Source: a virus (taxonomy: Duplodnaviria; Caudoviricetes). From it: a stretch of DNA of 54,951 nt. Under the pieces are notes generated by a model that was not told where the DNA came from, ran no database searches, and saw only the letters and a list, made by a program, of their open reading frames with translations. Location of the stretch: positions 1 through 54,951 of the IMG/VR virus record IMGVR_UViG_3300047157_000021; one strand, written 5' to 3'. Position numbers and translations under genes: made by a program. Of the stretch, positions 34,573 to 53,725 are shown in pieces. Positions within the stretch are counted from its first letter, which is position 1. The number at the start of each line of letters is the position of its first letter.

Positions 34573-34654
34573 ACTATTATCTCCTTATGTTTAGTATGCG
34601 GCAACTGTGCCATAGTTATGTAGGGGATACTACCCCTGTACTAGTAACGATAAG

Positions 34655-35041: not shown

Positions 35042-35103
35042 TTAGTATTCCTCTTGGGTAAGGGTGTGTCTGACCAATCATCACAGGGGTCATCCGTTGG
35101 CAC
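35038..35103 (-). CDS. Possible 21-aa peptide MPTDDPCDDWSDTPLPKRNTK
   Basis: GTG start after AGGAG; stop overlaps the hydrolase ATG. Confidence 0.35.
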   Translation of the reverse strand: MPTDDPCDDWSDTPLPKRNTK

Positions 35104-35482: not shown

Positions 35483-35721
35483 TGTAACCTCATTGGTGTT
35501 TCATATACATATTCTATGTCTTTGTATTCTTCTGCCTCATACTCTTGGCAGTCGATAAACTCTACGTTGGTTGCATCCTGATGGGCATGACGCGCCATCA
35601 AGATTGCAAAGTTAGCTGCATCCGACCAAGAATTAACAGCAGGATAGGTATCATCTAATGCAATGATACTATCAACACCATCAATCTGTAGGTGGATCTC
35701 ATAAGATTTAATGCTTGGCAT
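35479..35721 (-). CDS. Hypothetical protein
   Basis: Start moved to ATG 35721 to reduce overlap. Confidence 0.6.
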   Translation of the reverse strand: MPSIKSYEIHLQIDGVDSIIALDDTYPAVNSWSDAANFAILMARHAHQDATNVEFIDCQEYEAEEYKDIEYVYETPMRLQ

Positions 35722-35998
35722 TGTAGTACCACGCACGTTCATCATTAGGTAACACATATTCTTTCCAATGTGCGGGTCTATCTGCATACTCATCATGTTT
35801 CTGTGGCTTAAAACTAAAAGTTTCTTTCAGTCTCCACGTTTGATGTCGTAAGTCACGTAATGTGGACAGGTCTATGTCAAACGTTTCTGATGCCTCATCT
35901 AACATACTGTCTAACGCAATGTACAACTCAAGCATTTCTTGTGCTTTGTCCTCTTGAAGTAGGTATGTTAGTTTCTCTGGTGTTTTTTTCTTAGTCAT
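35708..35998 (-). CDS. Hypothetical early protein
   Basis: AAGGAG RBS. Confidence 0.7.
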   Translation of the reverse strand: MTKKKTPEKLTYLLQEDKAQEMLELYIALDSMLDEASETFDIDLSTLRDLRHQTWRLKETFSFKPQKHDEYADRPAHWKEYVLPNDERAWYYNAKH

Positions 35999-36182
35999 AT
36001 TGTACTCCTTTTCTTATTACATCATTATACTCATAGGGGTGTTCTTCCCACTCTCCACCCATAGGTAGATTGATTTCGTCTTTTATACAATCCGCAAAGA
36101 CATCGTACCCATCATAGCACCAACCGTCTTTGTTAGACCACCCTTGCTCGCCATCTTCTTTGTTTATTATAATATAATTCAT
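35991..36182 (-). CDS. Hypothetical early protein
   Basis: AAGGAG RBS, ATGA coupling. Confidence 0.7.
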   Translation of the reverse strand: MNYIIINKEDGEQGWSNKDGWCYDGYDVFADCIKDEINLPMGGEWEEHPYEYNDVIRKGVQYD

Positions 36183-36574
36183 GGTCTTGCTCCTTCTGCA
36201 TATATGTATGGTCTGTTGACGGTATTATACACTACCATACTTGGTTGTATTCTTAGCATTGCACGTTTGGCTGAAAGGACAGGTCTTACGCCCTCTACAT
36301 CAACGAATGTATCCCATTTGTAAGGGTTGTATGACACAAGTGAGTAACCCAAATAGTCTGGATCAAAATCGTTAAACACTGTTATGTCACCACGTACAAA
36401 GGCATGTACATTTTTCTTGCCCTCACGCAGTACACGCTCACGTCCTGCCTTACGTACTACAAACGTAGGATTGTCTATGTGTACTTCATCAGTGTGAAGT
36501 ATCACCCTGCCCGTCTTACACGAACGAACAGACCATATGTATTTGTGTAGATTGAAATATACTTCAACTCTCAT
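36179..36574 (-). CDS. Conserved phage hypothetical protein
   Basis: VYFNLHK..SVR..AGRERVLREGKKNVHAFV pattern; AAGGT RBS. Confidence 0.75.
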   Translation of the reverse strand: MRVEVYFNLHKYIWSVRSCKTGRVILHTDEVHIDNPTFVVRKAGRERVLREGKKNVHAFVRGDITVFNDFDPDYLGYSLVSYNPYKWDTFVDVEGVRPVLSAKRAMLRIQPSMVVYNTVNRPYIYAEGARP

Positions 36575-36620
36575 CTGACTTACCTTTCAGTCGAAGGGTG
36601 TGAACAATAGGTATATCATA

Positions 36621-36959
36621 TTAACCTGTCTTTTTCAACTGCTGATCCACATCATCCAAGAAGGTGATCAGGATCTTACGCATACGCATCAACTTGCCAC
36701 GCTCCATGTTATACTTGCCTTCGATCATACCAAGGTCTTTGAGTACCTTGACACGATAGGCAATGCGGTTTGGATACTCATTGAGTACCTTGGCAATCTC
36801 AGCCATAGTCATCTCACCCCAAAGCTCATTGATAACCTCGTCAATTACAGCGTAATTGTAAGTGTACTTACGTGCCTTACTCATGTGGAATGTATGGTTT
36901 GCATACAATTCTGGGTGTGCTGTTTTTACTACGGGTGCTGTTGCTGTTGAGTTAGTCAT
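36621..36959 (-). CDS. Putative winged-HTH DNA-binding protein
   Basis: TMAEIAKVLNEYPNRIAYRVKVLKDLGMIE; AAGGAG RBS. Confidence 0.65.
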   Translation of the reverse strand: MTNSTATAPVVKTAHPELYANHTFHMSKARKYTYNYAVIDEVINELWGEMTMAEIAKVLNEYPNRIAYRVKVLKDLGMIEGKYNMERGKLMRMRKILITFLDDVDQQLKKTG

Positions 36960-36971
36960 GTGTATATCTCC

Positions 36972-37175
36972 TTAAGATATTTTGTTTGAACGATAGTTAG
37001 TTACGCTATTGCGTAGAGTTAGTTTACGTGAACGATCTTTCTTTCTGTCAATCTTCCACGCTTGCCGCCTTCGATTAGGTCCAACGTTGGACTTAACCTT
37101 AGTCATCTTGATGAAGTTTTGCATTTCGTATCGCATGTTCATTCTCCTGTTTGCGGTTACGTTTAGCCTTGCCAC
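36972..37175 (-). CDS. Small basic hypothetical protein (true start probably an internal ATG)
   Basis: AGGAG precedes the MNMRYEM starts; fills gap. Confidence 0.5.
   Translation of the reverse strand: MARLNVTANRRMNMRYEMQNFIKMTKVKSNVGPNRRRQAWKIDRKKDRSRKLTLRNSVTNYRSNKIS
37075..37096. repeat. Palindromic site, copy 1
   Basis: TTAGGTCCAACGTTGGACTTAA. Confidence 0.95.
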
Positions 37176-37281
37176 CTTTCTTAGGCGGCACGACCTGTGG
37201 GGATTTGCGCTCCTGTAACATAGCCTTTGCCACAGGATTACGGTATGTTACAGAAGTTTTCTTAGCCATGTTCAAATCCAT
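37099..37281 (-). CDS. Small basic hypothetical protein
   Basis: RNPVAKAM...VVPPKKG pattern. Confidence 0.6.
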   Translation of the reverse strand: MDLNMAKKTSVTYRNPVAKAMLQERKSPQVVPPKKGGKAKRNRKQENEHAIRNAKLHQDD

Positions 37282-37891
37282 ATGTTACACATTCTACGTG
37301 ATACCTAGACACTACGTCACCAGTATCTAAGGCACGATTGGCACGATTGCCAGCCACATATTTGCACCAAGTATCCCACCAATATTCAGCGCCTTCTTTT
37401 TGGCAAAGCTCAACGTAGTCCTCTACCTTGCGGCGTACTGTCGCAGCTTTCATGCCTGATGGTGGTGTCTTGACAAGGTTAGGTGATATACCTAACCGCT
37501 TGATATTGTGGCTGTCAATACATGCCACATTGAAGCCTAAGCATTGAGCTAGGAAGGCAGCTTTTACCATGCCAAGGTTAGGTACAGCCATGAATAACTG
37601 GATGACATCAGCACATGCTTCTACGCTTTCGTATCCTTTGGTGTCCACTATGTGGTAGAGCTTGCCATACAAGAACTCTTTGTGATCGTTTAGATACATG
37701 TAGCCATCAGCTTTCTTACCCCACAAACAATCAGCATGGTATCTGTCACGTTCTACTTTGACCATGCTGCCACGCACTGTGGACAAGCCAGCTTGTATTG
37801 TAAGCAGTACAAACAAGCCAGTGTTTACCAAGGCATCTGGGCCACGCCATTTTACGAAGGCTTTAATTTCATTTACATCACGCTGATACAT
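37262..37891 (-). CDS. HhH-GPD superfamily (DNA glycosylase-like) protein
   Basis: LFMAVPNLGMVKAAFLAQCLGFNVACIDSH; GGAG RBS. Confidence 0.6.
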   Translation of the reverse strand: MYQRDVNEIKAFVKWRGPDALVNTGLFVLLTIQAGLSTVRGSMVKVERDRYHADCLWGKKADGYMYLNDHKEFLYGKLYHIVDTKGYESVEACADVIQLFMAVPNLGMVKAAFLAQCLGFNVACIDSHNIKRLGISPNLVKTPPSGMKAATVRRKVEDYVELCQKEGAEYWWDTWCKYVAGNRANRALDTGDVVSRYHVECVTYGFEHG

Positions 37892-38133
37892 TATACTAAT
37901 TCTCCAATCAATGTTTCACAGGCTTCGACGATATTAGACATGCTTTCTTTTATAGAAGGCGACAGCCAATCGCCATTTGAAATAGGTTCAGCGAAGCTGT
38001 GGATACGTGTCAAGTCACGATGTATGTCACGTAAATCTTGCATCACTTGCCATGCTTCATGGGCGGCTTGTTGCTGAGCGTCAATCTTATCTAAGATTTG
38101 CATTATACTTCCTCTCCAAACATACTGTTCCAT
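37891..38133 (-). CDS. Hypothetical early protein (start probably ATG 38103)
   Basis: GAGG RBS and TAATG coupling at 38103. Confidence 0.6.
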   Translation of the reverse strand: MEQYVWRGSIMQILDKIDAQQQAAHEAWQVMQDLRDIHRDLTRIHSFAEPISNGDWLSPSIKESMSNIVEACETLIGELV

Positions 38134-38303
38134 TCAGCGGGTGTAACCCCTGAGATTATAAACTCACGCTCATCGACAGAGAGGTGAGGCATGACGTTTT
38201 GGATTAACTCACCGTCAACCCATGCGTCTAATTGTGATTGTGTAATGGGCAATTCCATTACGTTAGTGTTACCAGTGAGATGTGAAGTGCGAGTAATTAT
38301 CAT
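38103..38303 (-). CDS. Conserved hypothetical early protein
   Basis: AAAGGA RBS; LIQNVMPHLSVDEREFIISG. Confidence 0.75.
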   Translation of the reverse strand: MIITRTSHLTGNTNVMELPITQSQLDAWVDGELIQNVMPHLSVDEREFIISGVTPAEWNSMFGEEV

Positions 38304-38319
38304 TTTAACTTTCCTTTAG

Positions 38320-38341
38320 TTAGGTCCAACGTTGGACTTAA
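38320..38341. repeat. Palindromic site, copy 2 (intergenic, next to an RBS)
   Basis: TTAGGTCCAACGTTGGACTTAA. Confidence 0.95.
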
Positions 38342-38346
38342 GTTTC

Positions 38347-38478
38347 TCATTTAAGCAGGGCAGCTTTAGCTTCATCCACATTCTCAAAGAATGAGATTGA
38401 GCGCTGACCTGTGATCTTACAAGTACGGTAAACATGCCAGAAACCATACTGATCTGTGATGACTTTAATCGTATTCAT
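38347..38478 (-). CDS. 43-aa hypothetical protein (not in ORF track)
   Basis: MNTIKVITDQYGFWHVYRTCKITGQRSISFFENVDEAKAALLK; AAAGGA RBS. Confidence 0.75.
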   Translation of the reverse strand: MNTIKVITDQYGFWHVYRTCKITGQRSISFFENVDEAKAALLK

Positions 38479-38505
38479 TTAACTTCCTTTCTAGTATATG
38501 TATAC

Positions 38506-38543
38506 GTTATTTATACTTTCAATAAATATCAAGTATAAATAAC
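38506..38543. other. Inverted repeat with 13-bp perfect arms
   Basis: GTTATTTATACTT-12 nt-AAGTATAAATAAC. Confidence 0.85.
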
Positions 38544-38564
38544 TTATACTATACATAGAGTTTG

Positions 38565-38780
38565 TCAAGCTGGGTTCCATTCATGCTGGGGTAATTCCAC
38601 AGCGGCGTCTTTTCTCTCACGAAATTCTACTTCGTAGCCTCGCTTTTCCCATCTGTCAGCACATCTGCGCATAGCTTTCCCAGCCAGTTCACAGGCACCA
38701 TCATATGGCTTGGTTTCAAAGATGGTTTCACCATCATCATTTAATACAATTACAGAGTAATTCATTTGGGTTCCTTCCAA
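38565..38780 (-). CDS. Hypothetical early protein (start probably ATG 38765)
   Basis: AAGGA RBS, ATGA coupling. Confidence 0.65.
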   Translation of the reverse strand: MEGTQMNYSVIVLNDDGETIFETKPYDGACELAGKAMRRCADRWEKRGYEVEFRERKDAAVELPQHEWNPA

Positions 38781-38983
38781 CCGCTATCAATCACCATCTT
38801 GCCCATCATTGGCACAAGTGTACCTCTAGGCTTAGATGATTCCATCAGGTCATCCACACTTGTGAAAGGTTTAGGTCCAACGTTGGACTTAAGCTGTCTC
38901 GCCTCATCCAGACGCGCACGAAGGGCATTGGTACGCTGAGAGCGCACCTCTGCCTTGGTTGATGTGTGTTGCTTGTATCTCAT
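38762..38983 (-). CDS. Hypothetical early protein
   Basis: ATGA coupling. Confidence 0.65.
   Translation of the reverse strand: MRYKQHTSTKAEVRSQRTNALRARLDEARQLKSNVGPKPFTSVDDLMESSKPRGTLVPMMGKMVIDSGWKEPK
38871..38892. repeat. Palindromic site, copy 3
   Basis: TTAGGTCCAACGTTGGACTTAA. Confidence 0.95.
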
Positions 38984-39570
38984 GCCGCAGCCTTTTCTTC
39001 TGAGGCTGATACGCTGTCATATTCCATGAGCATCTCAGCAAGATCCAGAGGATCAATGTTATTTGCCATGCAAACCTTGATAAGCTTGTCGAAGACAACC
39101 TGCTTTGTGACTGGTCCAACGTCGGACTTAACAACAGCTTCGCTGGGTGTTTCAGCTTCGCTGACTGCTACAGCTTCGCTGTTTTCTGTTGTCTCAGCAA
39201 CCTCTTTAGAGGTAGCATCTTTCTGCTTCATTGCTCTCTGCAAAGCAGACAGTGAAGTAAAACCTTTCTTTGAGGTTTCAATGAATGCTCTGCATTCTGA
39301 TTCGTTCTCAACAAACCAAAGAGCTTCGCTCCGACGCCGTTTGTCGATCAAATGAAGATGGCAATCACGAAGCCTTTGGCTTGGGATACGATCACCACCC
39401 TCAGCTTTTAGCTCGACCATCAGCTTTCCAAGCTGTGTATCAAAGCCTTCAGCTTTGGTTGAAAGTTTGAATCTTTTCTTGTCAGCAGCTTCGATTTTAG
39501 CCCACTGTTCTGAAAGAACCTTGCCTTGATCTTCGAGGGTTGAGATGTTTTGAATTTCGAGATTTGCCAT
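38980..39570 (-). CDS. First early gene, hypothetical protein
   Basis: AAAGGA RBS, 196 aa. Confidence 0.8.
   Translation of the reverse strand: MANLEIQNISTLEDQGKVLSEQWAKIEAADKKRFKLSTKAEGFDTQLGKLMVELKAEGGDRIPSQRLRDCHLHLIDKRRRSEALWFVENESECRAFIETSKKGFTSLSALQRAMKQKDATSKEVAETTENSEAVAVSEAETPSEAVVKSDVGPVTKQVVFDKLIKVCMANNIDPLDLAEMLMEYDSVSASEEKAAA
39110..39131. repeat. Palindromic site, copy 4 (variant)
   Basis: ACTGGTCCAACGTCGGACTTAA. Confidence 0.9.
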
Positions 39571-39586
39571 TTTGAGCTTCCTTTAT

Positions 39587-39670
39587 CTATCTTCTATTTT
39601 TATATGAGAGAATCTATATCTCTCACAAGAAGTGAGATATAGTTCTATCATTAAAAATGTAAGAAGATAG
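39587..39670. other. Long imperfect hairpin upstream of the first early gene
   Basis: Nested pairs CTATCTTCT/AGAAGATAG, ATTTTTA/TAAAAAT, ATGA/TCAT, AGAA/TTCT, CTATATCTC/GAGATATAG. Confidence 0.8.
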
Positions 39671-39850
39671 TATAAGTTTTGGAGATTGAAAAGCTGCCTC
39701 GCGATCCTCTGCGCCTGCCGTTTCACACGCTGTTGCAAGAAATAATATTCTCTTCGATAATATTTTTCTGAAACTCATGCGCTAAACTTGCGACCTCAAC
39801 CCACAGCTTCACCACCTTAACTGTGACATTTTAGCAACATCAAAGATGTT

Positions 39851-39872
39851 ATAGGTCCAACGTCGGACTTGA
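39851..39872. repeat. Palindromic site, copy 5 (variant, non-coding)
   Basis: ATAGGTCCAACGTCGGACTTGA. Confidence 0.9.
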
Positions 39873-40359
39873 CTTGAACCATTGGCAGAGCAGCACGTGG
39901 CTTGTAGGATCATGTGCATTGCCCCAAAGGGGGTGGGGTAGATTATAAGCATCGTCTTGCCAACACACTAAGAGTGTGACAAATCCCCCTATTCATTCTG
40001 TCTTTAGACAGGCAACTGATTCCATAACAGTTGTCGTAGACAAGTAAGTGGTTGTTTTTAAACACATCTACGATGTAATGGTGGAATGTGACATGCTGTT
40101 TGCTCTCACCACGCGCCATGACCTTGCATTATAGGCGCAATTGCGCGGTGAAGAGCGAGGGGCCGCAGGGGCCAGTGGGGGTAGCGTAGATAGTATGCAT
40201 GAATATACACACAGATCAGGAAAATACACTGGTAACCACTTTACATATAAGGTGGTTTACACACACAATGGTTACATAGTTGTAACAATTCGTGATGAGA
40301 TACACAGGTAACGTAATGTTTCAGTAGATCACATAATGTTACAGTGACGATATTAACAC

Positions 40360-40390
40360 TTGACATATCATATTAGATGTGTAAAACTAT
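40360..40390 (+). promoter_or_regulatory. Putative promoter
   Basis: TTGACA-16 nt-TAAAACTAT. Confidence 0.5.
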
Positions 40391-40571
40391 GTAATAGTAA
40401 TAGCTAAGGTGCTTACATGTACAATGTAGCATTTAAATGTCCTTACAATGTTACTCTTAAAAATAATTCCTTACAATATTACACATAACATAAACATGTA
40501 CAGTGTAACACTTAAGTGTACTCCGCTTTATGCGGAGGCGTTTGTATATTAATTTAAATTAGGTATTGACA

Positions 40572-40778
40572 ATGGCAAAGAAATCTGTAAAACTATATAC
40601 AGACAATGTTCTTGAAGAGTTTTATAAACACGTATTAGACGGTAATCTTGAGAACTTGCATATCCCCCATAGTGATGTATTCTACGTAAGAGAGGCTGTA
40701 CAGGCTCACTACGGTAGATCTTTTACTTTAGAGCATGTGGAGTGGGCTATGCGTGAAGAAGGATGGACAGATGCCTAA
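40572..40778 (+). CDS. Hypothetical protein
   Basis: AGGT RBS; first ORF of the plus arm. Confidence 0.65.
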   Translation: MAKKSVKLYTDNVLEEFYKHVLDGNLENLHIPHSDVFYVREAVQAHYGRSFTLEHVEWAMREEGWTDA

Positions 40779-41055
40779 AGACCCCAGACTAGAACGTGCA
40801 GGTGTATCAGGCTTTAACAAACCTAAGCGTACACCTAACCATCCTAAGAAGTCACACGTAGTTGTAGCTAAAGAGGGTGATACGGTTAAGACTATTCGCT
40901 TTGGTGAGCAAGGCGCTAAGACTGCAGGAAAACCTAAAGCAGGTGAATCAGATAAAATGAAAAAGAAACGTGCAAGCTTTAAAGCACGTCATTCAAAGAA
41001 CATAAAGCGTGGTAAGTTGAGTGCAGCTTACTGGGCTGATAAAGTTAAATGGTAA
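40771..41055 (+). CDS. Basic conserved phage protein (DUF5754-like)
   Basis: KTIRFG..RASFKARH..SAAYWA..KW. Confidence 0.7.
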   Translation: MPKDPRLERAGVSGFNKPKRTPNHPKKSHVVVAKEGDTVKTIRFGEQGAKTAGKPKAGESDKMKKKRASFKARHSKNIKRGKLSAAYWADKVKW

Positions 41056-41073
41056 ATAGAAGGAACTATACCA

Positions 41074-41553
41074 ATGGGAAAACTACCTAAGTTTAAACAG
41101 AAACAAACAGGACAAGAGCGTGGACGTGCTGCATCAGGACGTATCTCAGCTATCACAACTAAAGCTGGTGACAAGCCACTATCAATGGCTGCGTACCGTT
41201 CATTTACAGATAAGCAACGTGCAGATGCTATGATACAGGCAGGTAAAGATTTACGTGCAGGTAAAATTACACAAAAAGAATTTGATGCTATCGAAAAGAA
41301 AATTGATGCTGCAGATGCTGCGGAAGCACAAAAGTCAGCTACAAAAGGCGCTAACACAAAAGCTGGTAATAAGAAAGTTAAACCGCTACCTAATCCTTTT
41401 GCAGATATGGCACATGGAGGCATGGCGCATAAAAAGAAAAAGTCATATTCTAAAGGTGGCTATGGTGATGGCAAGAAAAATATGTACGCAAAGGGTGGCT
41501 ATGCAAACGCAGGTGCATCTGTAGGCGGCACACAGAAGTGGACGGCGGGTTAA
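41074..41553 (+). CDS. Lys-rich hypothetical protein with xxGG repeats
   Basis: AAGGA RBS; MAHGG, YSKGG, YAKGG. Confidence 0.7.
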   Translation: MGKLPKFKQKQTGQERGRAASGRISAITTKAGDKPLSMAAYRSFTDKQRADAMIQAGKDLRAGKITQKEFDAIEKKIDAADAAEAQKSATKGANTKAGNKKVKPLPNPFADMAHGGMAHKKKKSYSKGGYGDGKKNMYAKGGYANAGASVGGTQKWTAG

Positions 41554-41747
41554 TGTGGCTTGCAGTGTTGCTGGGTTGTTATAGCCCAGCAGCAACATCT
41601 TGTGACGTAATGATACGTACCAGTGGATTGATAGCAACTGAAAAGTTGTGTCAAGAAGAAGTAGCTAATGCAGCTAAAGCTCTAGCACAACAGGGGCTAT
41701 ACATCCGTACAAAATGTTTTAAACTAAAGGTAGGCTCTACAGTTTAA
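41553..41747 (+). CDS. Small Cys-containing hypothetical protein
   Basis: TAATG coupling at both ends. Confidence 0.65.
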   Translation: MWLAVLLGCYSPAATSCDVMIRTSGLIATEKLCQEEVANAAKALAQQGLYIRTKCFKLKVGSTV

Positions 41748-41998
41748 TGACTTTAATATCTCACTTTCCTTTACCTAGTTTTCCTTTTCAGACGCATGAA
41801 AACATAGTGTTTGAAAAGGCAGACAAGGATAGGTCCAGTAGAAATAATGAAGAATATAAACCTGAGCAGCCTAACAAAGTAACTCCTGATACACCAGTAG
41901 AAGATCTTAAGCTAGTGAATCAGATGTATGCTTATAACCCCAATCCAAATAAACTACGTAAACCTGACGGTCAGATCGTAGACTTTATAGTAGCGTAG
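41747..41998 (+). CDS. Hypothetical protein
   Basis: TAATG coupling. Confidence 0.65.
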   Translation: MTLISHFPLPSFPFQTHENIVFEKADKDRSSRNNEEYKPEQPNKVTPDTPVEDLKLVNQMYAYNPNPNKLRKPDGQIVDFIVA

Positions 41999-42006
41999 GA
42001 AATAAT

Positions 42007-42375
42007 ATGTCAATAGATACACGTACATATACTACAGACACAGCAGCAGTAGCAGTAACAGCTACTTCAGGTGGCGCTAGTGCTAACTTAGTATATACGT
42101 GTCCACCTAACCACGATGCTACTATAGATTTCTTACATATTAGTAATGGTTCTAATTCTACTCATAACGCTACTGTTCAGTGGTATCATGCAGACACAAA
42201 CTCATATCATCACTTAATAAATGCAAAGGCTATAGCTGGGCATGATGTATATAATATTGTAACGTCTGACAGGATTCACCTACATGCTGGCGATAAGATC
42301 TTAGCGTTTGATGGTACTAGTAGTGGGCTAGAAGTATTTATCTCTGTACGTCAGTACTATAACCCTAATAGATAA
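42007..42375 (+). CDS. Hypothetical beta-rich protein
   Basis: AGGA RBS; YTCP..LHAGDKI pattern. Confidence 0.7.
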   Translation: MSIDTRTYTTDTAAVAVTATSGGASANLVYTCPPNHDATIDFLHISNGSNSTHNATVQWYHADTNSYHHLINAKAIAGHDVYNIVTSDRIHLHAGDKILAFDGTSSGLEVFISVRQYYNPNR

Positions 42376-42387
42376 TGCATAGCGGGG

Positions 42388-42417
42388 TTGCAAACTTGTC
42401 TATACTATGTTATAACT
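42388..42417 (+). promoter_or_regulatory. Sigma70-type promoter for the DUF1127-like gene
   Basis: TTGCAA-17 nt-TATAAC. Confidence 0.65.
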
Positions 42418-42430
42418 AAGTATGATATAA

Positions 42431-42480
42431 CTATCTCCATAAGGGTAAGTAATTCTTACCTTAACATATATAGGAGATAG
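42431..42480 (+). promoter_or_regulatory. 5'-UTR hairpin occluding the RBS
   Basis: CTATCTCC pairs with GGAGATAG; inner GGTAAG/CTTACC stem. Confidence 0.7.
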
Positions 42481-42483
42481 AAC

Positions 42484-42645
42484 ATGTTTAAAAAAGTACT
42501 TAATAAAATTCAAGAACATCAACAGCGCAGAGCAGACTATTGGGTTCTTCAGAATATGTCAGATAAACATCTGCATGATATGGGAATTTCTCGTGGCGAA
42601 ATCTACAACAAAATCTACGGCGAAGAAAGCAAAATCCAAGGTTAA
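42484..42645 (+). CDS. DUF1127 (YjiS/CcaF1-like) small protein, 53 aa (not in ORF track)
   Basis: MFKKVLNKIQEHQQRRADYWVLQNMSDKHLHDMGISRGEIYNKIYGEESKIQG matches RR....L..LSD..L.DIG.SR.EI; AGGAG RBS. Confidence 0.82.
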   Translation: MFKKVLNKIQEHQQRRADYWVLQNMSDKHLHDMGISRGEIYNKIYGEESKIQG

Positions 42646-42799
42646 TGAGGCAGGAAATTATACTAAGCCTGCTATGCGTAAACGTTTGTTTGAGCGGATT
42701 AAACGGGGAACCAAAGGCGGGAAGGCGGGTCAATGGTCTGCACGTAAAGCCCAACTCCTCGCAAGTGAATACAAAAAAGCGGGTGGGGGTTATAAATGA
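42593..42799 (+). CDS. Basic conserved phage protein (DUF5872-like)
   Basis: YTKP.MRKR..GGKAGQWSARKAQLL..YKKAGGGY; GTG start proposed. Confidence 0.7.
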   Translation: MAKSTTKSTAKKAKSKVNEAGNYTKPAMRKRLFERIKRGTKGGKAGQWSARKAQLLASEYKKAGGGYK

Positions 42800-42963
42800 A
42801 GGTAGAAGCACCTAAAGGCTACCACTGGATGAAACAATCTAATGGTAGCTTTAAACTTATGAAGCACACAGGAAAGTTTGTACCACATAAAGGTGCAAGC
42901 TTGTCTGCTAATTTTGAGGTACAGAAAGTACATGGCACTAGCAAAAAGTCAAAAAAGTCTTAA
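42796..42963 (+). CDS. 55-aa basic hypothetical protein (not in ORF track)
   Basis: MKVEAPKGYHWMKQSNGSFKLMKH...; ATGA coupling. Confidence 0.7.
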   Translation: MKVEAPKGYHWMKQSNGSFKLMKHTGKFVPHKGASLSANFEVQKVHGTSKKSKKS

Positions 42964-43177
42964 CAAGTGGACTAAGGAAAAGTGGCGTACTAAAAGCGGG
43001 AAGCCTAGTGCTAAAACTGGTGAACGCTATTTACCTACTAAGGCTATCAATGCTCTTAGTTCTAGTGAGTACGCAGCCACTACTAGAGCAAAACGACAAG
43101 GCACTAAGGCAGGTCAGCAGTTTGTGGCTCAACCTAAAGAGATTGCAAAGAAGACCGCTAGATACAGGCGAGGATAA
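42932..43177 (+). CDS. Basic conserved phage protein (DUF5872-like)
   Basis: SQKSL.KWTKEKWRTKSGK...ERYLP; GAGG RBS. Confidence 0.7.
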   Translation: MALAKSQKSLNKWTKEKWRTKSGKPSAKTGERYLPTKAINALSSSEYAATTRAKRQGTKAGQQFVAQPKEIAKKTARYRRG

Positions 43178-43180
43178 CTT

Positions 43181-43387
43181 ATGACTATAGCAATGGAAAG
43201 AGTGTTAGCTTGGAAGATTATGCCAAGACTAATGATGTTAGTAATGACATGGATGTACATAGAAGTTTTGTTTTGGTTTATGGCGTTATCTTCTGCTGAT
43301 ATGACATCACAAGCTACTGCACTTACAGCTACTGTAACTGGTGCTATGACTGGTGCGTTTGCTGTTTGGCTGGGGCATGAAAAATGA
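43181..43387 (+). CDS. Two-TM membrane protein (lysis cluster)
   Basis: Two hydrophobic segments; GAGG RBS. Confidence 0.65.
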   Translation: MTIAMERVLAWKIMPRLMMLVMTWMYIEVLFWFMALSSADMTSQATALTATVTGAMTGAFAVWLGHEK

Positions 43388-43740
43388 TTGGTCAAATTTT
43401 AGGCGCAGTAGGTGGGCTAGCAACTACGTACCTAGATGGTAAAGTAGCTGTACAGAAAGCTAACGCTGAGATTAAAGTTAAACAAGCTACAGGTGAGATT
43501 GATTGGGATCTTGCTGCAATACAAGCTACACAGAATAGCTGGAAAGATGAATGGATAACTTTACTTTTTTCTATTCCATTAATTCTAGCATTCTGTGGTG
43601 ATTGGGGTAACAACATTGTGCAAGCTGGGTTTGCGGCACTCGAAACTATGCCATCTTGGTATCAGTATTCATTAGGTGGAATCGTTAGTGCCAGTATAGG
43701 CATTCGTTCTGTAAGTAAGTTTTTTGGAGGAAAGAAATAA
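43384..43740 (+). CDS. Putative holin (3TM type)
   Basis: SWKDEW plus TM segments, basic C-terminus, near the endolysin. Confidence 0.6.
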   Translation: MIGQILGAVGGLATTYLDGKVAVQKANAEIKVKQATGEIDWDLAAIQATQNSWKDEWITLLFSIPLILAFCGDWGNNIVQAGFAALETMPSWYQYSLGGIVSASIGIRSVSKFFGGKK

Positions 43741-44195
43741 TGGTAGCACCGTTAGTGGTAGCAGGAGCAGCAGCCGTAGCTAGGTTTATTGCTAGTAGAG
43801 GTATGGCAGCAGCAGTTAAAAAGTATGGTAAGAAACTAGCGCAGCAAGGTGCTAAACACGCCAAAGACATGACTACTAAACCTAAAGCAGGTCAACGTCA
43901 AGTAGAACAAGCAACTAGAGGGCAACGTGCCTCACGTAAAGCGCAGCGTATTGGCTTTGGTGTAGGTGCAGCAGGTGCAGGTTTAACAGGTGCAGCTAAG
44001 ATCGCTGATATGCGTAAGAAGCTTAAAGCTGAAACTGACGCTAAGAAACGCGCGCAGTTACAAGCCCGTATTGAAAAAGAAGTAGCTAAAGCTAACGCAG
44101 CTAAAACTAAAGATGCAGCTAAGATTCCTAACAAACGTCCACCCAAGAAACCTGCATTAGCAGGATCTATGCGTCCACCAAAAAGGCCCAAATAA
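43740..44195 (+). CDS. Very basic Ala/Lys-rich hypothetical protein
   Basis: GGAGG RBS, TAATG coupling. Confidence 0.65.
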   Translation: MVAPLVVAGAAAVARFIASRGMAAAVKKYGKKLAQQGAKHAKDMTTKPKAGQRQVEQATRGQRASRKAQRIGFGVGAAGAGLTGAAKIADMRKKLKAETDAKKRAQLQARIEKEVAKANAAKTKDAAKIPNKRPPKKPALAGSMRPPKRPK

Positions 44196-44196
44196 T

Positions 44197-44712
44197 ATGC
44201 ATAAAAACTTTAACAAATGTTTATCCATGTTACTTCACCATGAAGGTGGCTTTGTAAATCATCCCAAAGACCCAGGGGGTATGACTAACCTTGGTGTTAC
44301 TAAAGCTGTTTACGATAAGTGGATAGGTAGAGAATCTACAGAAGAAGAGATGCGTGAGCTTACCTCAATAGATGTAGCTCCCATCTATAAGAAAAATTAT
44401 TGGGATAGGGTACGAGGTGATGATCTTCCTAGCGGTGTTGACTGGTGCGCCTTTGACTGGGCCGTTAATTCTGGTAGCGGTCGCCCAGCTAAAGCTATTC
44501 AACGTGCTGTCGGAGCAACTGCAGATGGGGCTATAGGACCACGTACACTACAAGCTATTATGAATAAAGAACCTAAAGCTATTATTGAAAATGTATATAC
44601 ACAACGTCAAACATTTTATGAGTCGTTAAAAACATTTGAGACATTTGGTCGCGGTTGGACACGCCGTAATAAAGAAACATTGGAGCAAGCACTCCGTATG
44701 ATAGAGGACTAG
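44197..44712 (+). CDS. Endolysin, GH108 with peptidoglycan-binding domain
   Basis: HEGGFVNHPKDPGGMTNLGVT; FGRGWTRR. Confidence 0.93.
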   Translation: MHKNFNKCLSMLLHHEGGFVNHPKDPGGMTNLGVTKAVYDKWIGRESTEEEMRELTSIDVAPIYKKNYWDRVRGDDLPSGVDWCAFDWAVNSGSGRPAKAIQRAVGATADGAIGPRTLQAIMNKEPKAIIENVYTQRQTFYESLKTFETFGRGWTRRNKETLEQALRMIED

Positions 44713-44713
44713 T

Positions 44714-45088
44714 ATGGCACGAGAACTAACAGAGCGTCAACAAAAGTTTCTTGCAGTCCTTATGGATGAGGCAGGTGGCGATGTCACTATGGCTAAGAAG
44801 CTGGCAGGATACTCACCTAACACTACTAACACTGAAATTACTAATAGTCTTAAGGAAGAGATCCTAGATGTTACGCATAGTTATCTAGCACGTAACGTAC
44901 CTAAAGCTGCTATGGCTATGGTTAGCGCTTTGTATGATCCTACTGAGTTAGGTATTCGTGATAAGATGGCAGCAGCTAAAGAGTTACTAGATCGTACTGG
45001 TTTAGTTAAAACTGAAAAGATGCAAGTAGAAGCTAAGGGTGGTGTTATGCTAATGCCAGCTAAACAAGTACAGGAAGATGATGACTAA
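44714..45088 (+). CDS. terS: Terminase small subunit
   Basis: LTERQQKFL..AKKLAGYS; AAKELLDRTG; upstream of terL. Confidence 0.72.
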   Translation: MARELTERQQKFLAVLMDEAGGDVTMAKKLAGYSPNTTNTEITNSLKEEILDVTHSYLARNVPKAAMAMVSALYDPTELGIRDKMAAAKELLDRTGLVKTEKMQVEAKGGVMLMPAKQVQEDDD

Positions 45089-45509
45089 GCCATTAGGTAA
45101 ATGGAAACTACCCCAACCAACGGATCTTAAAGAAGACAATGAGTGGACACCTATTCCACGAGTAGCAAGAACAGTTCCATTTGGATATGAATTAGATCCA
45201 GAAGATGACGGAATACTATTGCCAATTAGTTTAGAACTTGATATGCTTGAGGAAGCGAAACAATATCTTAAACAGTATTCGTATCGTGAAGTAGCGAACT
45301 GGTTGACCAGAAATACAGGTAGAACTATATCGCACGTAGGACTCAAGAAACGGTTGGATAATGAACGAAGAAGAAAAAACAAAGCTGGCAGCTTACGCAG
45401 ATGGGCAGACTATGCGAAAAAGGCAATCGCCAAAGCGGAAGAAATCGAAAATAGCCGCACAGGAGCCACCGCGAAAACGCAAAGCGAAAACGCCCAATCC
45501 GCAGCCTGA
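45078..45509 (+). CDS. Hypothetical protein, possibly DNA-binding
   Basis: PFGYEL and SYREVANWL...ISHVGL helical pattern. Confidence 0.65.
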   Translation: MMTKPLGKWKLPQPTDLKEDNEWTPIPRVARTVPFGYELDPEDDGILLPISLELDMLEEAKQYLKQYSYREVANWLTRNTGRTISHVGLKKRLDNERRRKNKAGSLRRWADYAKKAIAKAEEIENSRTGATAKTQSENAQSAA

Positions 45510-46938
45510 TATAATAGAAGAGTTTACCCAGCAGGTTGAAGAAGATCATAACGTAATCTTTAAGCCTAATGTTGGACCACAAACAGACTTCTTAGCTGCA
45601 GGTGAACGTGAGGTACTATATGGTGGCTCTGCAGGTGGCGGTAAGTCCTACGCTATGTTGGCTGACCCTTTACGCTTTATGGGTCATCCAGCCTTTTCAG
45701 GATTGCTCCTACGGCATACTACAGAAGAACTAAGAGAACTTATATTTAAGTCTCAAGAAATGTACCCTAAGATCTGGCCTGGGATTAAATGGTCAGAACG
45801 TAAGATGCAGTGGACTGCACCCTCTGGTGCCAGACTGTGGATGTCTTACTTAGATAAAGAAGATGACGTACTACGTTACCAAGGTCTTGCTTTTAGTTGG
45901 ATAGGCTTTGACGAACTAACTCAGTGGCCTACTCCATTCGCTTGGAATTACATGCGAAGTCGCTTGAGATCTACAGCAAGTGATTTACCAGTATACATGA
46001 GGGCTACTACAAACCCAGGAGGTAGGGGGCATCATTGGGTAAAAAAGATGTTTATTGATCCCGCCTCCTCTGGGGAATCTTTTGATGCAACTGATATTGA
46101 AACAAATGAAGTATTACGCTATCCTGCTGGACACTCAAAAGCTGGCAAACCTTTATTCAAGCGTAGGTTTATACCTGCCCGTCTTTCCGACAATCCTTAC
46201 CTAGCAGAAACTGGTGATTATGAAGCAATGCTTCTGTCTTTACCAGAGCAGCAAAGAAGACAGCTACTGGAAGGTGACTGGGATATTAAAGAAGGCGCAG
46301 CATTTACTGAATTTAATAGGCAGATACATGTAGTTGAGCCATTTGCTATACCACATAACTGGGTTAAATTTAGAGCGTGTGATTACGGATATGGAAGTAA
46401 GTCAGGGGTTATTTGGTTTGCAGTATCTCCTAGTGAACAGTTAGTAGTATACAGGGAACTGTATGTAGGCAAAGTATTAGCTACAGATTTAGCTGATATG
46501 GTATTAGATGCAGAGGCTGAAGATGGCTCAATTAGATATGGTGTTTTGGATAGTTCTCTATGGCACAAGCGTGGTGATACTGGCCCGTCATTGGCTGAAC
46601 AAATGATTATGAAGGGCTGTCGCTGGCGTCCATCTGACAGATCAAAAGGCTCTCGTGTAGCTGGTAAAAACGAAGTGCACAGGAGATTGCAAGTTGACGA
46701 ATACACAGAAGAGCCTCGTATGGTTTTCTTTAATACTTGCCACAATCTTATTGCACAGCTTCCAGCCTTACCTATAGATAAACGAAATCCAGAGGATATT
46801 GACACGACCTCAGAAGATCACTTGTACGATGCTTTAAGATATGGTATTATGTCACGACCACGATTTACTAACTTTGAATTTGGTGGGCCTACTATGGCAA
46901 GCGGAATGCAAGTAGCAGACGCAACATTTGGATATTAA
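45361..46938 (+). CDS. terL: Terminase large subunit
   Basis: YGGSAGGGKS, IGFDE, ATTNPGG, DYG, DHLYDALRY; start 45361 or 45412. Confidence 0.95.
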   Translation: MNEEEKTKLAAYADGQTMRKRQSPKRKKSKIAAQEPPRKRKAKTPNPQPDIIEEFTQQVEEDHNVIFKPNVGPQTDFLAAGEREVLYGGSAGGGKSYAMLADPLRFMGHPAFSGLLLRHTTEELRELIFKSQEMYPKIWPGIKWSERKMQWTAPSGARLWMSYLDKEDDVLRYQGLAFSWIGFDELTQWPTPFAWNYMRSRLRSTASDLPVYMRATTNPGGRGHHWVKKMFIDPASSGESFDATDIETNEVLRYPAGHSKAGKPLFKRRFIPARLSDNPYLAETGDYEAMLLSLPEQQRRQLLEGDWDIKEGAAFTEFNRQIHVVEPFAIPHNWVKFRACDYGYGSKSGVIWFAVSPSEQLVVYRELYVGKVLATDLADMVLDAEAEDGSIRYGVLDSSLWHKRGDTGPSLAEQMIMKGCRWRPSDRSKGSRVAGKNEVHRRLQVDEYTEEPRMVFFNTCHNLIAQLPALPIDKRNPEDIDTTSEDHLYDALRYGIMSRPRFTNFEFGGPTMASGMQVADATFGY

Positions 46939-46951
46939 GGAAAGAAACTAT

Positions 46952-49075
46952 ATGTCAGATATTGATGAAATTTTTATTGAGGACGATTCCATTGCCCTTG
47001 AAGACACAGAAAACTCTGATGTTGAAGACTATGGTGCATCTAAAATAATTCCATTTATTATGGAAAGATACAAACGTTCTGAGGATTATCGTGAGCAGGA
47101 CGAACAGCGCTGGCTTAAATCATATAGAAACTATAGAGGACTATATGGCTCTGATGTACAATTTACAGAAGCTGAAAAGTCTCGTGTATTTATTAAGGTA
47201 ACTAAAACAAAAACACTGGCTGCATATGGTCAGATGATTGATGTACTATTTGCTAACAATAGATTTCCATTAAGTGTAGATCCTACAGAGCTACCAGATG
47301 GTGTTGTAGCAGATGTTAATTTTGATCCTAAAGAACCTGAACAACTACGTAAAGATACTAAGAATGAGATTGTGTCTCCTTATGGTTACAAGGGAGATGG
47401 CAAAGAGTGGGTTAAGGGTGCGACAGAAAAGACCCTTATGGAAAGTCTTGGCCCACTAAAAGAAAAACTAGAAGATATAGATAATCTAAAAGGTACTACA
47501 GGACTTACACCATCTGCAATCACATTCAGCCCAGCTATGATTGCAGCTAAGAAAATGCAAAAGAAAATACATGACCAGTTAGATGAGTCAAGTGCAGGTA
47601 AACATCTACGTAGTACAGTATTTGAAATGGCGTTGTTTGGTACTGGTGTAATGAAAGGTCCATTTGCTGTAGATAAAGAATATGCTAACTGGAATGAAGA
47701 GGGTGAGTACTCTCCTGTGATTAAAACAGTACCACAGATATCTCACGTATCTGTGTGGAATTTTTATCCAGATCCAGATGCAAGTAATATGGATGAAGCT
47801 CAGTTTGTTATTGAGCGCCATAAACTATCACGCACACAACTACGTGCCCTTAAGAAACGTCCTTACTTTAGATCATCTTTAATTGATGAAGCTATTTCTT
47901 ACGGTGAAGATTATACACGAAAAGATTGGGAGCATGACTTAGCTGACTTTGCACCTGAACATGGTATTGATCGTTTTGAAGTATTAGAGTATTGGGGTAT
48001 GGTAGACGTAGAGCTACTAGAAGAACAAGGTGTAGATATCCCTAACGAACTATCTGGCTTTGATGAGTTACAAGCAAACGTTTGGATATGTAATGGTAAA
48101 CTACTACGTATGGTACTTAATCCTTTCAAACCTGCTAAGATTCCGTACCACGCCTCTCCATATGAACTAAACCCGTATGGTTTTTTTGGTGTGGGTCTTG
48201 CAGAAAATATGGACGATACGCAAACTTTAATGAATGGTTTTATGCGAATGGCAGTTGACAATGCCGTATTGTCTGGTAATCTATTGATTGAAGTAGATGA
48301 AACTAACTTAGTTCCAGGTCAAGACTTATCAGTATATCCTGGTAAAGTATTTAGACGCCAAGGTGGTGCCCCAGGACAAGCAGTGTTTGGAACTAAGTTC
48401 CCTAATGTTGCAGGAGAAAACCTGCAGTTATTTGATAAAGCAAGGGTATTAGCAGATGAGTCAACTGGATTTCCATCTTTCGCTCATGGTCAAACAGGGG
48501 TCAGTGGCGTGGGCCGTACTGCTTCTGGCATTTCTATGCTTATGGGTGCCGCACAAGGCGGTATAAAAACAGTAATTAAAAACATTGATGACTACTTGCT
48601 ACGTCCTTTAGGTGAGGGCTTGTTTAGTTTTAATATGCAGTTTAGTTACGATCCTGAGTTGCGTGGAGATTTAGAAGTTAAAGCTCGTGGCACAGAAAGT
48701 CTTATGGCTAACGAAGTACGTAGTCAACGTTTGATGCAGTTTTTACAAGTAGCATCTAATCCTTCACTAGCGCCGTATGCTAAGTTCCAGTATATTATTA
48801 GGGAGATAGCTAAGTCAATGGAGCTAGACCCAGATAAAGTAACTAACAATATGGATGAGGCAGCAATACAAGCAGAGCTTATGAAAGGCTTTGCAGCCCC
48901 AGCCCAAGAGCAACAACAACAGGGAGCCAACCCTTTAGATCCTACAGGAGCAGGGGGTGGTAACATAGGAACAGGTCAAGTACCTACACCTCAAGAACAA
49001 GGATTTAGTGGAAATGAACAAGGACCAACTGCTCAACCGCCTCAAGCCAACGCTGGGCAACCCCCAACAGGCTAA
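46952..49075 (+). CDS. Portal protein
   Basis: About 707 aa directly after terL; AAGGA RBS; Q/P/G-rich tail. Confidence 0.85.
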   Translation: MSDIDEIFIEDDSIALEDTENSDVEDYGASKIIPFIMERYKRSEDYREQDEQRWLKSYRNYRGLYGSDVQFTEAEKSRVFIKVTKTKTLAAYGQMIDVLFANNRFPLSVDPTELPDGVVADVNFDPKEPEQLRKDTKNEIVSPYGYKGDGKEWVKGATEKTLMESLGPLKEKLEDIDNLKGTTGLTPSAITFSPAMIAAKKMQKKIHDQLDESSAGKHLRSTVFEMALFGTGVMKGPFAVDKEYANWNEEGEYSPVIKTVPQISHVSVWNFYPDPDASNMDEAQFVIERHKLSRTQLRALKKRPYFRSSLIDEAISYGEDYTRKDWEHDLADFAPEHGIDRFEVLEYWGMVDVELLEEQGVDIPNELSGFDELQANVWICNGKLLRMVLNPFKPAKIPYHASPYELNPYGFFGVGLAENMDDTQTLMNGFMRMAVDNAVLSGNLLIEVDETNLVPGQDLSVYPGKVFRRQGGAPGQAVFGTKFPNVAGENLQLFDKARVLADESTGFPSFAHGQTGVSGVGRTASGISMLMGAAQGGIKTVIKNIDDYLLRPLGEGLFSFNMQFSYDPELRGDLEVKARGTESLMANEVRSQRLMQFLQVASNPSLAPYAKFQYIIREIAKSMELDPDKVTNNMDEAAIQAELMKGFAAPAQEQQQQGANPLDPTGAGGGNIGTGQVPTPQEQGFSGNEQGPTAQPPQANAGQPPTG

Positions 49076-49229
49076 TGCGTTAGAGGAATACTTTGACTAT
49101 CTTATTACTGAACAACACAGAATAATGGAACAAACAGATAGTATTACTGTTGTGCATAGAGCGCAGGGTGCAATAAATCAATTACGCAGATTAAAGTTAT
49201 TGAAAGATGAAGTACTAAATGGCAGATAA
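49014..49229 (+). CDS. Small protein after portal
   Basis: HRAQGAI..LRRL pattern; position. Confidence 0.65.
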   Translation: MNKDQLLNRLKPTLGNPQQANALEEYFDYLITEQHRIMEQTDSITVVHRAQGAINQLRRLKLLKDEVLNGR

Positions 49230-51381: not shown

Positions 51382-51473
51382 CAGCACGTAAGTAATCTGT
51401 TACATTTGTCTGGCTACTCATCCCCCTAACAACAACACTAGGCTACGGTGGCCCCAGAAAAGAAAGTAAATAA

Positions 51474-52349: not shown

Positions 52350-52353
52350 GCTA

Positions 52354-53713: not shown

Positions 53714-53725
53714 TAATACACTTAC

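Follow-up and report, generated by a model that had tools for sequence, protein, structure and literature searches.

Which role could a small protein of a bacterial regulator family play in a phage, and under what conditions would it be made? We address this question for the gene at 42484..42645 on the plus strand of the IMG/VR virus record IMGVR_UViG_3300047157_000021, which was analysed over its whole length of 54,951 bases (hereafter the window) and is a complete virus genome by CheckV rating. A first-pass annotation, made from the sequence alone, had described this open reading frame (ORF) as a hidden DUF1127-like gene with its own expression unit, captured from an alphaproteobacterial host. 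The explanation that we favour is that a DUF1127-family gene under selection sits in a conserved cassette, whose predicted leader structure would gate its translation, and that the product would mimic regulators of the host. We give this explanation as a whole a probability of about 0.55.

A DUF1127-family gene under selection

The 53-residue product of the ORF is MFKKVLNKIQEHQQRRADYWVLQNMSDKHLHDMGISRGEIYNKIYGEESKIQG. It matches the DUF1127 profile PF06568 with an E-value of 1.4e-6 and a score of 28.4 bits, above the gathering score of 23.3, and residues 7-41 align with positions 3-37 of the 37 profile positions. When the whole record was searched in six frames with PF06568, this ORF was the single match (27.9 bits), and a comparison with PHROGs gave a weak match to the unannotated family phrog_26566 (E 4.4e-4). 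Nearly the whole chain consists of the domain of about 40 residues, and the conserved D-[IM]-G-[IL]-x-R-x-x-I motif is kept. The ORF read by the first-pass annotation, with the motif quoted there, is intact, and the proposed profile search places it above the Pfam threshold.

Relatives were collected by a pattern scan of IMG/VR, which returned 197 stretches, 177 of them encoding a relative of the window subtype. The best 80 of these 177, together with the window and the isolates CRP-603, CRP-13, and CRP-212, form a set of 84 copies. Conservation of the frame, on which the earlier proposal had depended, is complete in this set: all 84 copies have an open frame and an ATG at the homologous position, and they encode 38 distinct proteins of 46-72 residues. 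Codon comparison over the first 46 codons of 81 loci (52 distinct sequences) gives a ratio of nonsynonymous to synonymous polymorphism (pN/pS) of 0.218 in the annotated frame and of 0.96 and 1.95 in the other frames, which carry stops in 46/52 and 52/52 sequences. Across the 46 columns, 41 third codon positions are variable as against 14 second positions. When 35 distinct proteins are aligned, 23 columns are invariant, among them those of QQRRADYW and DMGISRGEI, and PF06568 matches 35/35 of these relatives. We conclude that 42484-42645 codes for a genuine protein of the DUF1127 family and is under selection. That it is a chance or decaying open frame, conserved on account of the overlapping next gene or an RNA element, is very improbable, since, although the ORF is short and shares its last 53 nucleotides (nt) with another gene, the low pN/pS comes from codons mostly outside the overlap, the other frames fare as described above, every one of the 35 relatives exceeds the Pfam cut-off, and the gene is kept in 35 of the 84 loci without an overlapping neighbour.

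An AlphaFold model built on the 35-protein alignment has a mean predicted local distance difference test score (pLDDT) of 77.7, with helices at residues 2-24, 27-32, and 37-46. A search of the PDB by sequence returned no DUF1127 structure, the best match being unrelated (E 0.2). Foldseek comparison of the model with the PDB reached E 4.1 at best, with weak helix-turn-helix-like rows, and a wide VIA-align search reached a best Z of 5.0, with generic helical rows and no SAM/Smaug row. Since these results are weak, the fold is uninformative. The three top clusters in the ESM Atlas resemble YjiS, scoring 0.84-0.87 (below 0.9), and have no recorded taxa.

Contigs from RNA libraries cover the gene: in X1, an identical contig of 348 nt corresponds to 42166-42513, and in X4, a contig of 3231 nt lies over 42376-43293 with 22 differences; in both, DNA carry-over is possible and transcript ends are not shown. 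The remark that such a gene is easy to miss proved apt, as it is unannotated in CRP-13, and so is its homologue in Siovirus SIO1, an ORF of 60 residues that overlaps both neighbours by 4 nt.

The cassette and its predicted leader hairpin

By sequence comparison, the gene belongs to a cassette that recurs in Roseobacter phages of the HMO-2011 type and consists of a TTGCA block, one or two TAWAAC boxes, a leader of about 45-70 nt with a hairpin predicted to bury the Shine-Dalgarno (SD) sequence, and the ORF. The intergenic stretch 42376-42483 is conserved as a unit, and the coding sequence of the same loci is saturated at synonymous sites. The ribosome-binding site AGGAG named in the first-pass annotation is present at 42472-42476, 7 nt before the ATG. 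It forms part of the feature at 42472..42480, in which GGAGATAG (42473-42480) is the 3' arm of the predicted hairpin. The 5' arm is the anti-SD sequence CTATCTCC at 42431..42438, and a nested hairpin AGGGTAAG/CTTACCTT at 42442..42462, predicted in window-type loci only, occupies the loop of the SD helix; all these elements are on the plus strand.

The predicted fold of 42415-42500 has an energy of -21.1 kcal/mol and a z-score of -3.64, and 0/200 shuffles are as stable. Of the 44 distinct upstream variants, 43 have a minimum-energy fold in which GGAG is paired with an upstream CTCC-type arm. CRP-1 and CRP-345 share both the promoter-like block and the SD-masking hairpin with the window; the exception among the variants is CRP-603, and in this phage and CRP-2 the predicted hairpin covers the start codons and not the SD. 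Eight arm pairs including the SD were found, with at least five clearly different solutions (CTATCTCC/GGAGATAG, ACTACTCCT/AGGAGTAGT, AGTCTCCAGTTGGT/ATTAACTGGAGATT, GTCTCCG/CGGAGAC, and AATTACCTTCA/TGGAGGTAATT). From an unfitted MAFFT alignment of 21 representatives, RNAalifold returns the SD helix as its sole output. Alignment cells of this helix are paired in 93.7% of cases versus 81.5% in shuffles (0/500 reach the observed value) and 41-58% when the partner is slid, and in 8/8 representatives GGAG is predicted to be paired with a probability of 1.00 at 10-45 °C. Since the sequences are related and one clade shows a one-base register shift, the number of independent hairpin events is small.

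Other roles for the leader were considered and rejected. An RNA thermometer of the FourU or ROSE type is not supported, since the FourU match (E 1.5) reaches 18.9 bits, far below its gathering score of 60, and the SD helix is predicted to stay closed at 10-45 °C; no Rfam family reaches its gathering score in the whole window. The hairpin does not resemble an intrinsic terminator, as no T-run follows it and no plus-strand terminator is listed at 40541-45500. Translational coupling to the upstream gene was discarded because 56 nt separate the upstream stop at 42375 from the 5' arm, and a conserved upstream open reading frame (uORF) because mini-ORFs such as ATG-ATA-TAA, read by eye, are present in some groups and missing in others.

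Upstream of the hairpin, a conserved plus-strand block, CATAGCGGGGTTGCAA (42378..42393), contains the -35-like TTGCAA (42388-42393). The block sequence AACGGGKWTGCA occurs once per locus in 58 of the 97 fetched loci, about 70-105 nt before the DUF1127 start wherever its position was mapped, and was found in neither the HMO-2011 nor the HTVC033P locus. Since it always stands before DUF1127 and not in the HMO-2011 and HTVC033P regions, the block appears to travel with this gene and not with the terminase. Box 1, an extended -10-like TGtTATAAC (42408..42416, plus strand), follows TTGCAA by 17 nt and gives the candidate promoter P1. The P1-type pattern TTGCA-16/18-TAnnnY is present in 59 of the 84 loci with at least 125 nt of upstream sequence, and 54 have TATAAC. 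Box 2, the -10-like TGaTATAACTA of candidate promoter P2 (42423..42433, plus strand), abuts the anti-SD arm. Its core TAWAAYTA is found within 75 nt of the start codon in 84/84 loci, the anti-SD core starts 2-4 nt after it in 83/85, and a TG lies at most 3 nt upstream of it in 56/83.

A candidate for the upstream promoter of the first-pass annotation is thus present as TTGCAA-17-TGtTATAAC and kept in the 59 loci mentioned, but a scan with the sigma-70 consensus omits it because the scan demands T at the last -10 position. With the pattern TTG[AC][AC]A-15/18-TAWAAC, six sites are found in the window versus a mean of 0.54 and a maximum of 3 in 200 dinucleotide shuffles. They lie at 7129, 40360, 40566, 42388, and 52354 on the plus strand and at 26794 on the minus strand, each on the coding strand of its block and most of them closely preceded by TG. 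Since the pattern was devised after four of the sites were known, the excess is no more than indicative. The site at 52354 reads TTGACA-16-TATAAC and precedes a leader of about 235 nt and the capsid gene, and those at 40360 and 40566 are at the start of the plus-strand block.

This arrangement suggests how translation could be gated. By prediction, the DUF1127 cistron would hardly be translated from transcripts with both hairpin arms, be they read-through products or P1 transcripts. Initiation at box 2, just past the anti-SD, would yield a transcript without the 5' arm, which would be translated; alternatively, a factor might unfold the hairpin and permit translation. A start at box 2 is suggested by the anti-SD core 2-4 nt downstream, where a start would be expected. 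We offer translation from such a transcript as a tentative proposal, somewhat short of an even chance.

A leader without a two-transcript switch must be weighed as well, and we hold it to be quite possible, if also below even odds. Only P1 or read-through transcripts would then exist, the hairpin would keep output low, stabilise the 5' end, or await a trans-acting factor, and box 2 would be conserved for another reason, as a regulator site or as a copy of box 1. In favour of this alternative, a -35 is missing from box 2, which forms with box 1 a direct repeat TGnTATAACTA, the two being 15 nt apart in the window, and 54-59 of the 84 loci have a P1 with a good -35, a 17-nt spacer, and TGn. Against it, box 2 is the only element found in all 84 loci, the 25 that lack P1 among them, and the anti-SD core falls at the start site expected from box 2. 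CA/ACA-rich loops are present in several groups and could serve as standby sites. Nevertheless, a helix that stays completely shut at 10-45 °C, as predicted, would make translation of any transcript with both arms almost impossible, which would be odd for a gene under strong purifying selection.

Gating through two transcripts has a precedent in phage T4, in which genes e, soc, and 49 have a hairpin-masked ribosome-binding site on early read-through transcripts and a late promoter inside the hairpin. The window resembles these genes in that its SD lies in a stable predicted hairpin and a -10-like box is placed so that the transcript would lack the 5' arm. It differs in having a sigma-70-like TAWAAC box instead of the T4 late TATAAATA, and for the window the two-transcript scheme is a prediction. 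Among cellular DUF1127 genes, duf1127-1 of Sinorhizobium meliloti is likewise controlled by a 5' leader with pairing that involves the ribosome-binding site (predicted in the window), as described in PMC12218461. In S. meliloti, control uses a translated uORF and Rho-dependent attenuation, whereas in the window the gene's own SD is masked and no conserved uORF is seen by eye.

The 3' end of the gene is shared with its neighbour. The next gene, of the phrog_17747 family (42593..42799, plus strand, +1 frame, E 3e-33), has its likely start at GTG 42593; its family match begins at 42617, before the DUF1127 stop, and the GTG gives an overlap of 53 nt. A phrog_17747 gene follows DUF1127 in 49 of the 84 loci, with candidate starts inside the DUF1127 ORF and overlaps of 29-74 nt. 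Two loci have an additional GTG 7 nt after the DUF1127 stop, and in three the GTG in the S-R-G-E codons is the sole candidate. The +1-frame GTG is present, by two codon solutions, in 49/49 loci with this neighbour versus 17/35 without it, and in D-M-G-I the Gly is encoded by GGG or GGA in 49/49 loci with the neighbour versus by GGT in 33/35 without. With GGR at this position, an SD-like GGGGA or GGGAA arises 9-12 nt ahead of the GTG. The start and SD-like site of the next gene are written into the invariant D-M-G-I-S-R-G-E codons (window 42593-42645; loci L003-L082). Since the overlap classes follow clades, they represent few independent events. In CRP-13 and one IMG/VR group (L034), the gene that overlaps the DUF1127 3' end encodes the small terminase subunit (TerS).

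As the next gene starts inside the ORF and no plus-strand terminator-like site is listed between 40541 and 45500, DUF1127 heads an operon and is not a closed unit. It is therefore the first cistron of the lysis/packaging operon, or of a transcript joining that operon. The expression unit claimed in the first-pass annotation must thus be qualified: promoter-like sites and an SD leader stand on the upstream side, but the unit is not closed on the downstream side.

On its 5' side, the cassette is bordered by the stop of a syntenic gene of 122 residues (42007..42375, plus strand; weak match to phrog_1276, E 2.1e-5). In most related loci the cassette is preceded by this same gene end, of which two versions exist among the IMG/VR loci. 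Contigs of two RNA-library runs (X4 and X5) match the window at about 97% from 42376 onward and have a different sequence upstream. This mosaic joint coincides exactly with the stop of the upstream gene and hence with the 5' border of the cassette.

Kinship, host, and origin

The window is an HMO-2011-type podophage whose closest isolates are Roseobacter phages: its large terminase subunit (TerL) is 85.8% identical to that of CRP-345, 82.8% to that of CRP-1, and 77.6% to that of Puniceispirillum phage HMO-2011. The HMO-2011 type, described in PMC9038755, ranks among the most abundant groups of marine phages. The relatives of the window were found by TerL, and DUF1127 was identified in them by tblastn (CRP-13, 207, 212, 235, 3, 738, 9, and 345), annotation (CRP-603 gp69), or profile (CRP-1 and CRP-2). 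It is present in 11/11 Roseobacter-infecting relatives (CRP-1, 2, 3, 9, 13, 207, 212, 235, 345, 603, and 738) and absent, at E 0.1 or better, from 7/7 relatives with other or unknown hosts, namely HMO-2011 (SAR116), HTVC033P, HTVC115P, and HTVC104P (SAR11), RHph_N3_19 (Rhizobium), phiM6 (Sinorhizobium), and the spring-water genome MW202701. An alphaproteobacterial host, as first proposed, is very probable, mainly from the whole-genome kinship to roseophages expressed in the TerL identities to CRP-345 and CRP-1; the presence of DUF1127 in all 11 Roseobacter-infecting relatives versus none of the 7 others adds to this and would narrow the host to Roseobacter.

In the CRP isolates as in the window, the gene lies between a gene of about 120 residues and the lysis/terminase genes. 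The GenBank record of CRP-603 labels its copy, gp69 (UAW59236.1), as a DUF1127 domain-containing protein, and the homologues in CRP-1, 2, 3, 9, 207, 212, 235, 345, and 738, of the same phage group and family, are annotated as hypothetical. The window protein is of the QQRRADYW subtype and 41-58% identical to the copies in the isolates. A second subtype of 72-92 residues is found in CRP-1, 2, 345, and 603, the copies of CRP-1 and CRP-345 having 88-92 residues. At the corresponding place, HMO-2011 carries a different small gene of the gp57 type. The window has an ORF at 43181-43387, directly before the lysis genes, that encodes a likely membrane protein, the C-terminus of which is homologous to HMO-2011 gp57 (38 residues; L086 3759-3872).

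The family extends to other phage lineages. When CRP-345 gp72 was compared by tblastn with 50,697 phage records, 29 matched (some of them GenBank/RefSeq duplicates), 28 with Rhodobacteraceae hosts and one a Sinorhizobium jumbo phage. The matches include Siovirus SIO1, Lentibacter phages ICBM1 and ICBM3, Celeribacter phage P12053L, CRP-4, CRP-5, CRP-6, and the Autographiviridae CRP-118 and CRP-403. A cellular tandem DUF1127 protein, taken as query, returned only roseophages (10 records). The restriction to alphaproteobacterial phages holds for the three queries used, no gammaproteobacterial YjiS-type query being among them. All of the 10 phage ORFs tested exceed the Pfam cut-off, with 30.5-56.7 bits. 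The lineages with DUF1127 include the HMO-2011 type, Siovirus/Zobellviridae, the CRP-6 type, and Autographiviridae, and in the last three the gene usually stands between those for MazG and ribonucleotide reductase. It directly follows MazG and precedes ribonucleotide reductase in SIO1, ICBM1, CRP-6 (with one gene between), and CRP-118; the loci of this arrangement are L093 1450-1632 (SIO1, NC_002519 19995-20177), L096 1450-1629, L094 1495-1692, and L095 1450-1629.

As to origin, 206 matches at E ≤ 1e-3, 34 of them at ≤ 1e-10, were obtained when 1.84 billion representatives were searched with a profile built from the 35 proteins. The best 150 of the 206 are short metagenomic proteins, and the matches inspected share a QQ[RK]RA-type helix. 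Among 20 clusters that were looked up, most are on metagenomic contigs of at most about 57 kb, and one names CRP-207 gp64; many are labelled YjiS (DUF1127 family) by the Joint Genome Institute (JGI). The single clearly cellular one (E 2e-9) is a tandem protein of 170 residues, encoded on a 346-kb contig of Sneathiella sp. Tandem proteins with two or three DUF1127 domains and 170-231 residues form P0093, P0099, and P0102, one cluster being that of Sneathiella sp. A word-based protein search returned 52 proteins, all of the phage-like type. By these comparisons, the window subtype is a viral lineage that has diversified. It may plausibly stem from a host, but any capture would be old, since the 20 clusters looked up include one phage and one cell, the latter at E 2e-9. 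The earlier idea of a captured host gene is not borne out, no close cellular donor appearing among these 20 clusters, with the best 150 of 206 matches metagenomic.

In the window, plus-strand gene blocks at 1-20187 and 40735-54951 flank a minus-strand block at 20216-39570. The DUF1127 gene lies about 1.7 kb into the second plus-strand block and is followed by the genes for a GH108 endolysin (44197), TerS (44714), and TerL (45361). The genome further encodes a family-A DNA polymerase, a DnaB-like helicase, and a tyrosine integrase; ribonucleotide reductase, ThyX, MazG, and endonuclease I; and a portal and a major capsid protein. No tRNA or tmRNA was found. Between the divergent blocks, 39571-40734 (about 1.16 kb) is without an ORF of 100 residues or more and contains G+C-rich palindromic stretches and two promoter-like sites. 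Similarity to ribonucleotide reductase is spread over two overlapping minus-strand ORFs at 21918-23544, one at 22573-23544 (phrog_367, E 3e-92) and one at 21918-22655 (Pfam barrel domain, E 2.2e-7), which could represent a split gene, a frameshift, or a wrongly chosen start.

Possible functions and their significance

The functions of DUF1127 proteins have been described recently, with RNA binding in Rhodobacter and PhoR binding and control of phosphate uptake in Agrobacterium and Escherichia coli. According to PMC12501420, PhoR is a binding partner of the small DUF1127 proteins of Agrobacterium and of YjiS of E. coli, which hold phosphate uptake down, loss of the small proteins leads to more phosphate-uptake gene expression, uptake, and polyphosphate, and an Agrobacterium mutant is complemented by homologues from Sinorhizobium, Rhodobacter, and E. 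coli. The window protein is like SDP1-3 of Agrobacterium tumefaciens and like YjiS in its length class (about 47-54 residues), in the domain filling the protein, in its Pfam family, in the D-[IM]-G-[IL]-x-R motif, and in its positive charge. It differs in being phage-encoded, in its lower arginine content, and in its own SD-masking leader, and PhoR binding, described for SDP1-3 and YjiS (PMC12501420), is conjectural for the phage protein.

By analogy, the phage protein is most likely a counterpart of the small DUF1127 regulators of the host. This reading draws on the size class, the complementation across species, the occurrence in phages of a DUF1127-rich bacterial order, and the nucleotide-metabolism neighbours in three other lineages. 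The phage-made version would reprogram Roseobacter physiology during infection, and it could do so through the phosphate sensor kinase PhoR, thereby setting the output of the Pho regulon. PhoR as the target is a possibility that we hold with some doubt.

RNA binding of the CcaF1 kind ranks second among the functions, and we consider it rather unlikely. The protein would bind host or phage RNAs and alter their RNase E-dependent processing or stability, possibly acting on its own leader or on the long late transcript. CcaF1 (RSP_6037) of Rhodobacter sphaeroides, from the bacterial order of the relatives' hosts, has a DUF1127 domain, binds RNA, and affects RNase E-dependent maturation of small RNAs (sRNAs) (PMC8034643), and a DUF1127 protein of Vibrio alginolyticus is treated as RNA-binding in PMC11380419. 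In contrast, YjiS of Salmonella is membrane-associated, and no RNA binding was seen for it (PMC11707872). The place of the gene as first cistron of a long operon with a structured leader would suit an RNA-binding factor. Unlike the window protein, CcaF1 has 71 residues and is co-transcribed with the CcsR (cuckoo) sRNAs that carry CCUCCUCCC loops (PMC8034643), whereas the window has an anti-SD CUCC in cis in the leader stem and no CcsR-type Rfam match at gathering score. Rfam searches of the window gave no family at gathering score and chance-level matches at 41500-43500; no search aimed at CCUCCUCCC was made. The homologues in CRP-13 and CRP-118 have weak SAM-like Pfam matches of 17-17.7 bits, below the cut-off, which echo the Smaug-like prediction in PMC8034643, but the structure searches returned no RNA-binding fold (Foldseek best E 4.1; VIA-align best Z 5.0), and the low arginine content also speaks against this function.

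A role apart from the DUF1127 pathways of the host, as a regulator of late, lysis, or packaging functions or as an inhibitor of a Roseobacter-specific defence, is improbable. The gene directly precedes the lysis and terminase genes in HMO-2011-type phages and overlaps the TerS start in CRP-13 and the L034 group, but a packaging role does not generalise, since the copies of Siovirus, CRP-6, and Autographiviridae sit between MazG and ribonucleotide reductase, away from the packaging genes. Limitation to phages of one host group would be expected of an anti-defence gene, although the protein belongs to a cellular regulator family. The most far-reaching form of the host-regulator reading is also a long shot: a roseophage-wide host-takeover microprotein, present in at least four unrelated lineages, that would plug into PhoR-PhoB signalling, would thereby govern the flow of phosphate in infected cells, and would be under a T4-like switch in HMO-2011-type phages.

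Several observations weigh against the explanation that we favour. The window protein is arginine-poor, with 3 arginines in 53 residues (5.7%) and a net charge of +2 (9 Lys and Arg versus 7 Asp and Glu), although the PhoR and RNA models both lean on positive charge. The mean in its clade of 37 proteins is 9.8% (range 5.6-13.8%), and the DUF1127 family averages about 14% (PMC12501420). The low content lowers the chance that the protein works like the characterised members, not its membership in the Pfam family. Single changes of arginines or of the DIGL motif in YjiS were without phenotype (PMC11707872). Moreover, the small DUF1127 proteins switch Pho signalling off (PMC12501420), which is not in the obvious interest of a phage that needs phosphate, so a phage copy must profit from this or act as an antagonist. 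In the leader, SD pairing in the window taken alone is unexceptional (rank 6 of 68 genes), and alignment cells with both sides changed come mostly from one clade and the one-base register shift. The P1 pattern is missing from a clade of 22 loci and from CRP-603, CRP-2, and CRP-212 (25 of 84), box 2 lacks a -35, and the sigma-70 consensus scan of 40500-45500 gave 10 sites versus 10.7 expected, none of them at the gene. Finally, the host correlation counts related phages and not independent events.

The identification as DUF1127 is not new, since the CRP-603 record and the JGI pipeline already label relatives in this way. A literature search on DUF1127 and phage found no paper on phage genes by title or abstract, and the term is absent from the main texts of PMC9038755, PMC6918029, PMC8528129, and PMC11092137, the supplementary tables of which may list it. 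Unreported, as far as can be told, are the leader that masks the SD together with the -10-like box abutting it, the overlap with the next gene, the association with Roseobacter hosts, and the MazG-DUF1127-ribonucleotide reductase arrangement in other roseophages.

The masked ribosome-binding site with a -10-like box against the anti-SD arm is a compact, testable case of translational gating in a marine phage. For uncultured HMO-2011-type genomes, DUF1127 would be a practical marker of a Roseobacter host. Should the protein act on phosphate signalling or RNA turnover of the host, it would be a widespread auxiliary regulator of about 50 residues in ocean roseobacters, the window subtype alone being encoded by 177 IMG/VR stretches.

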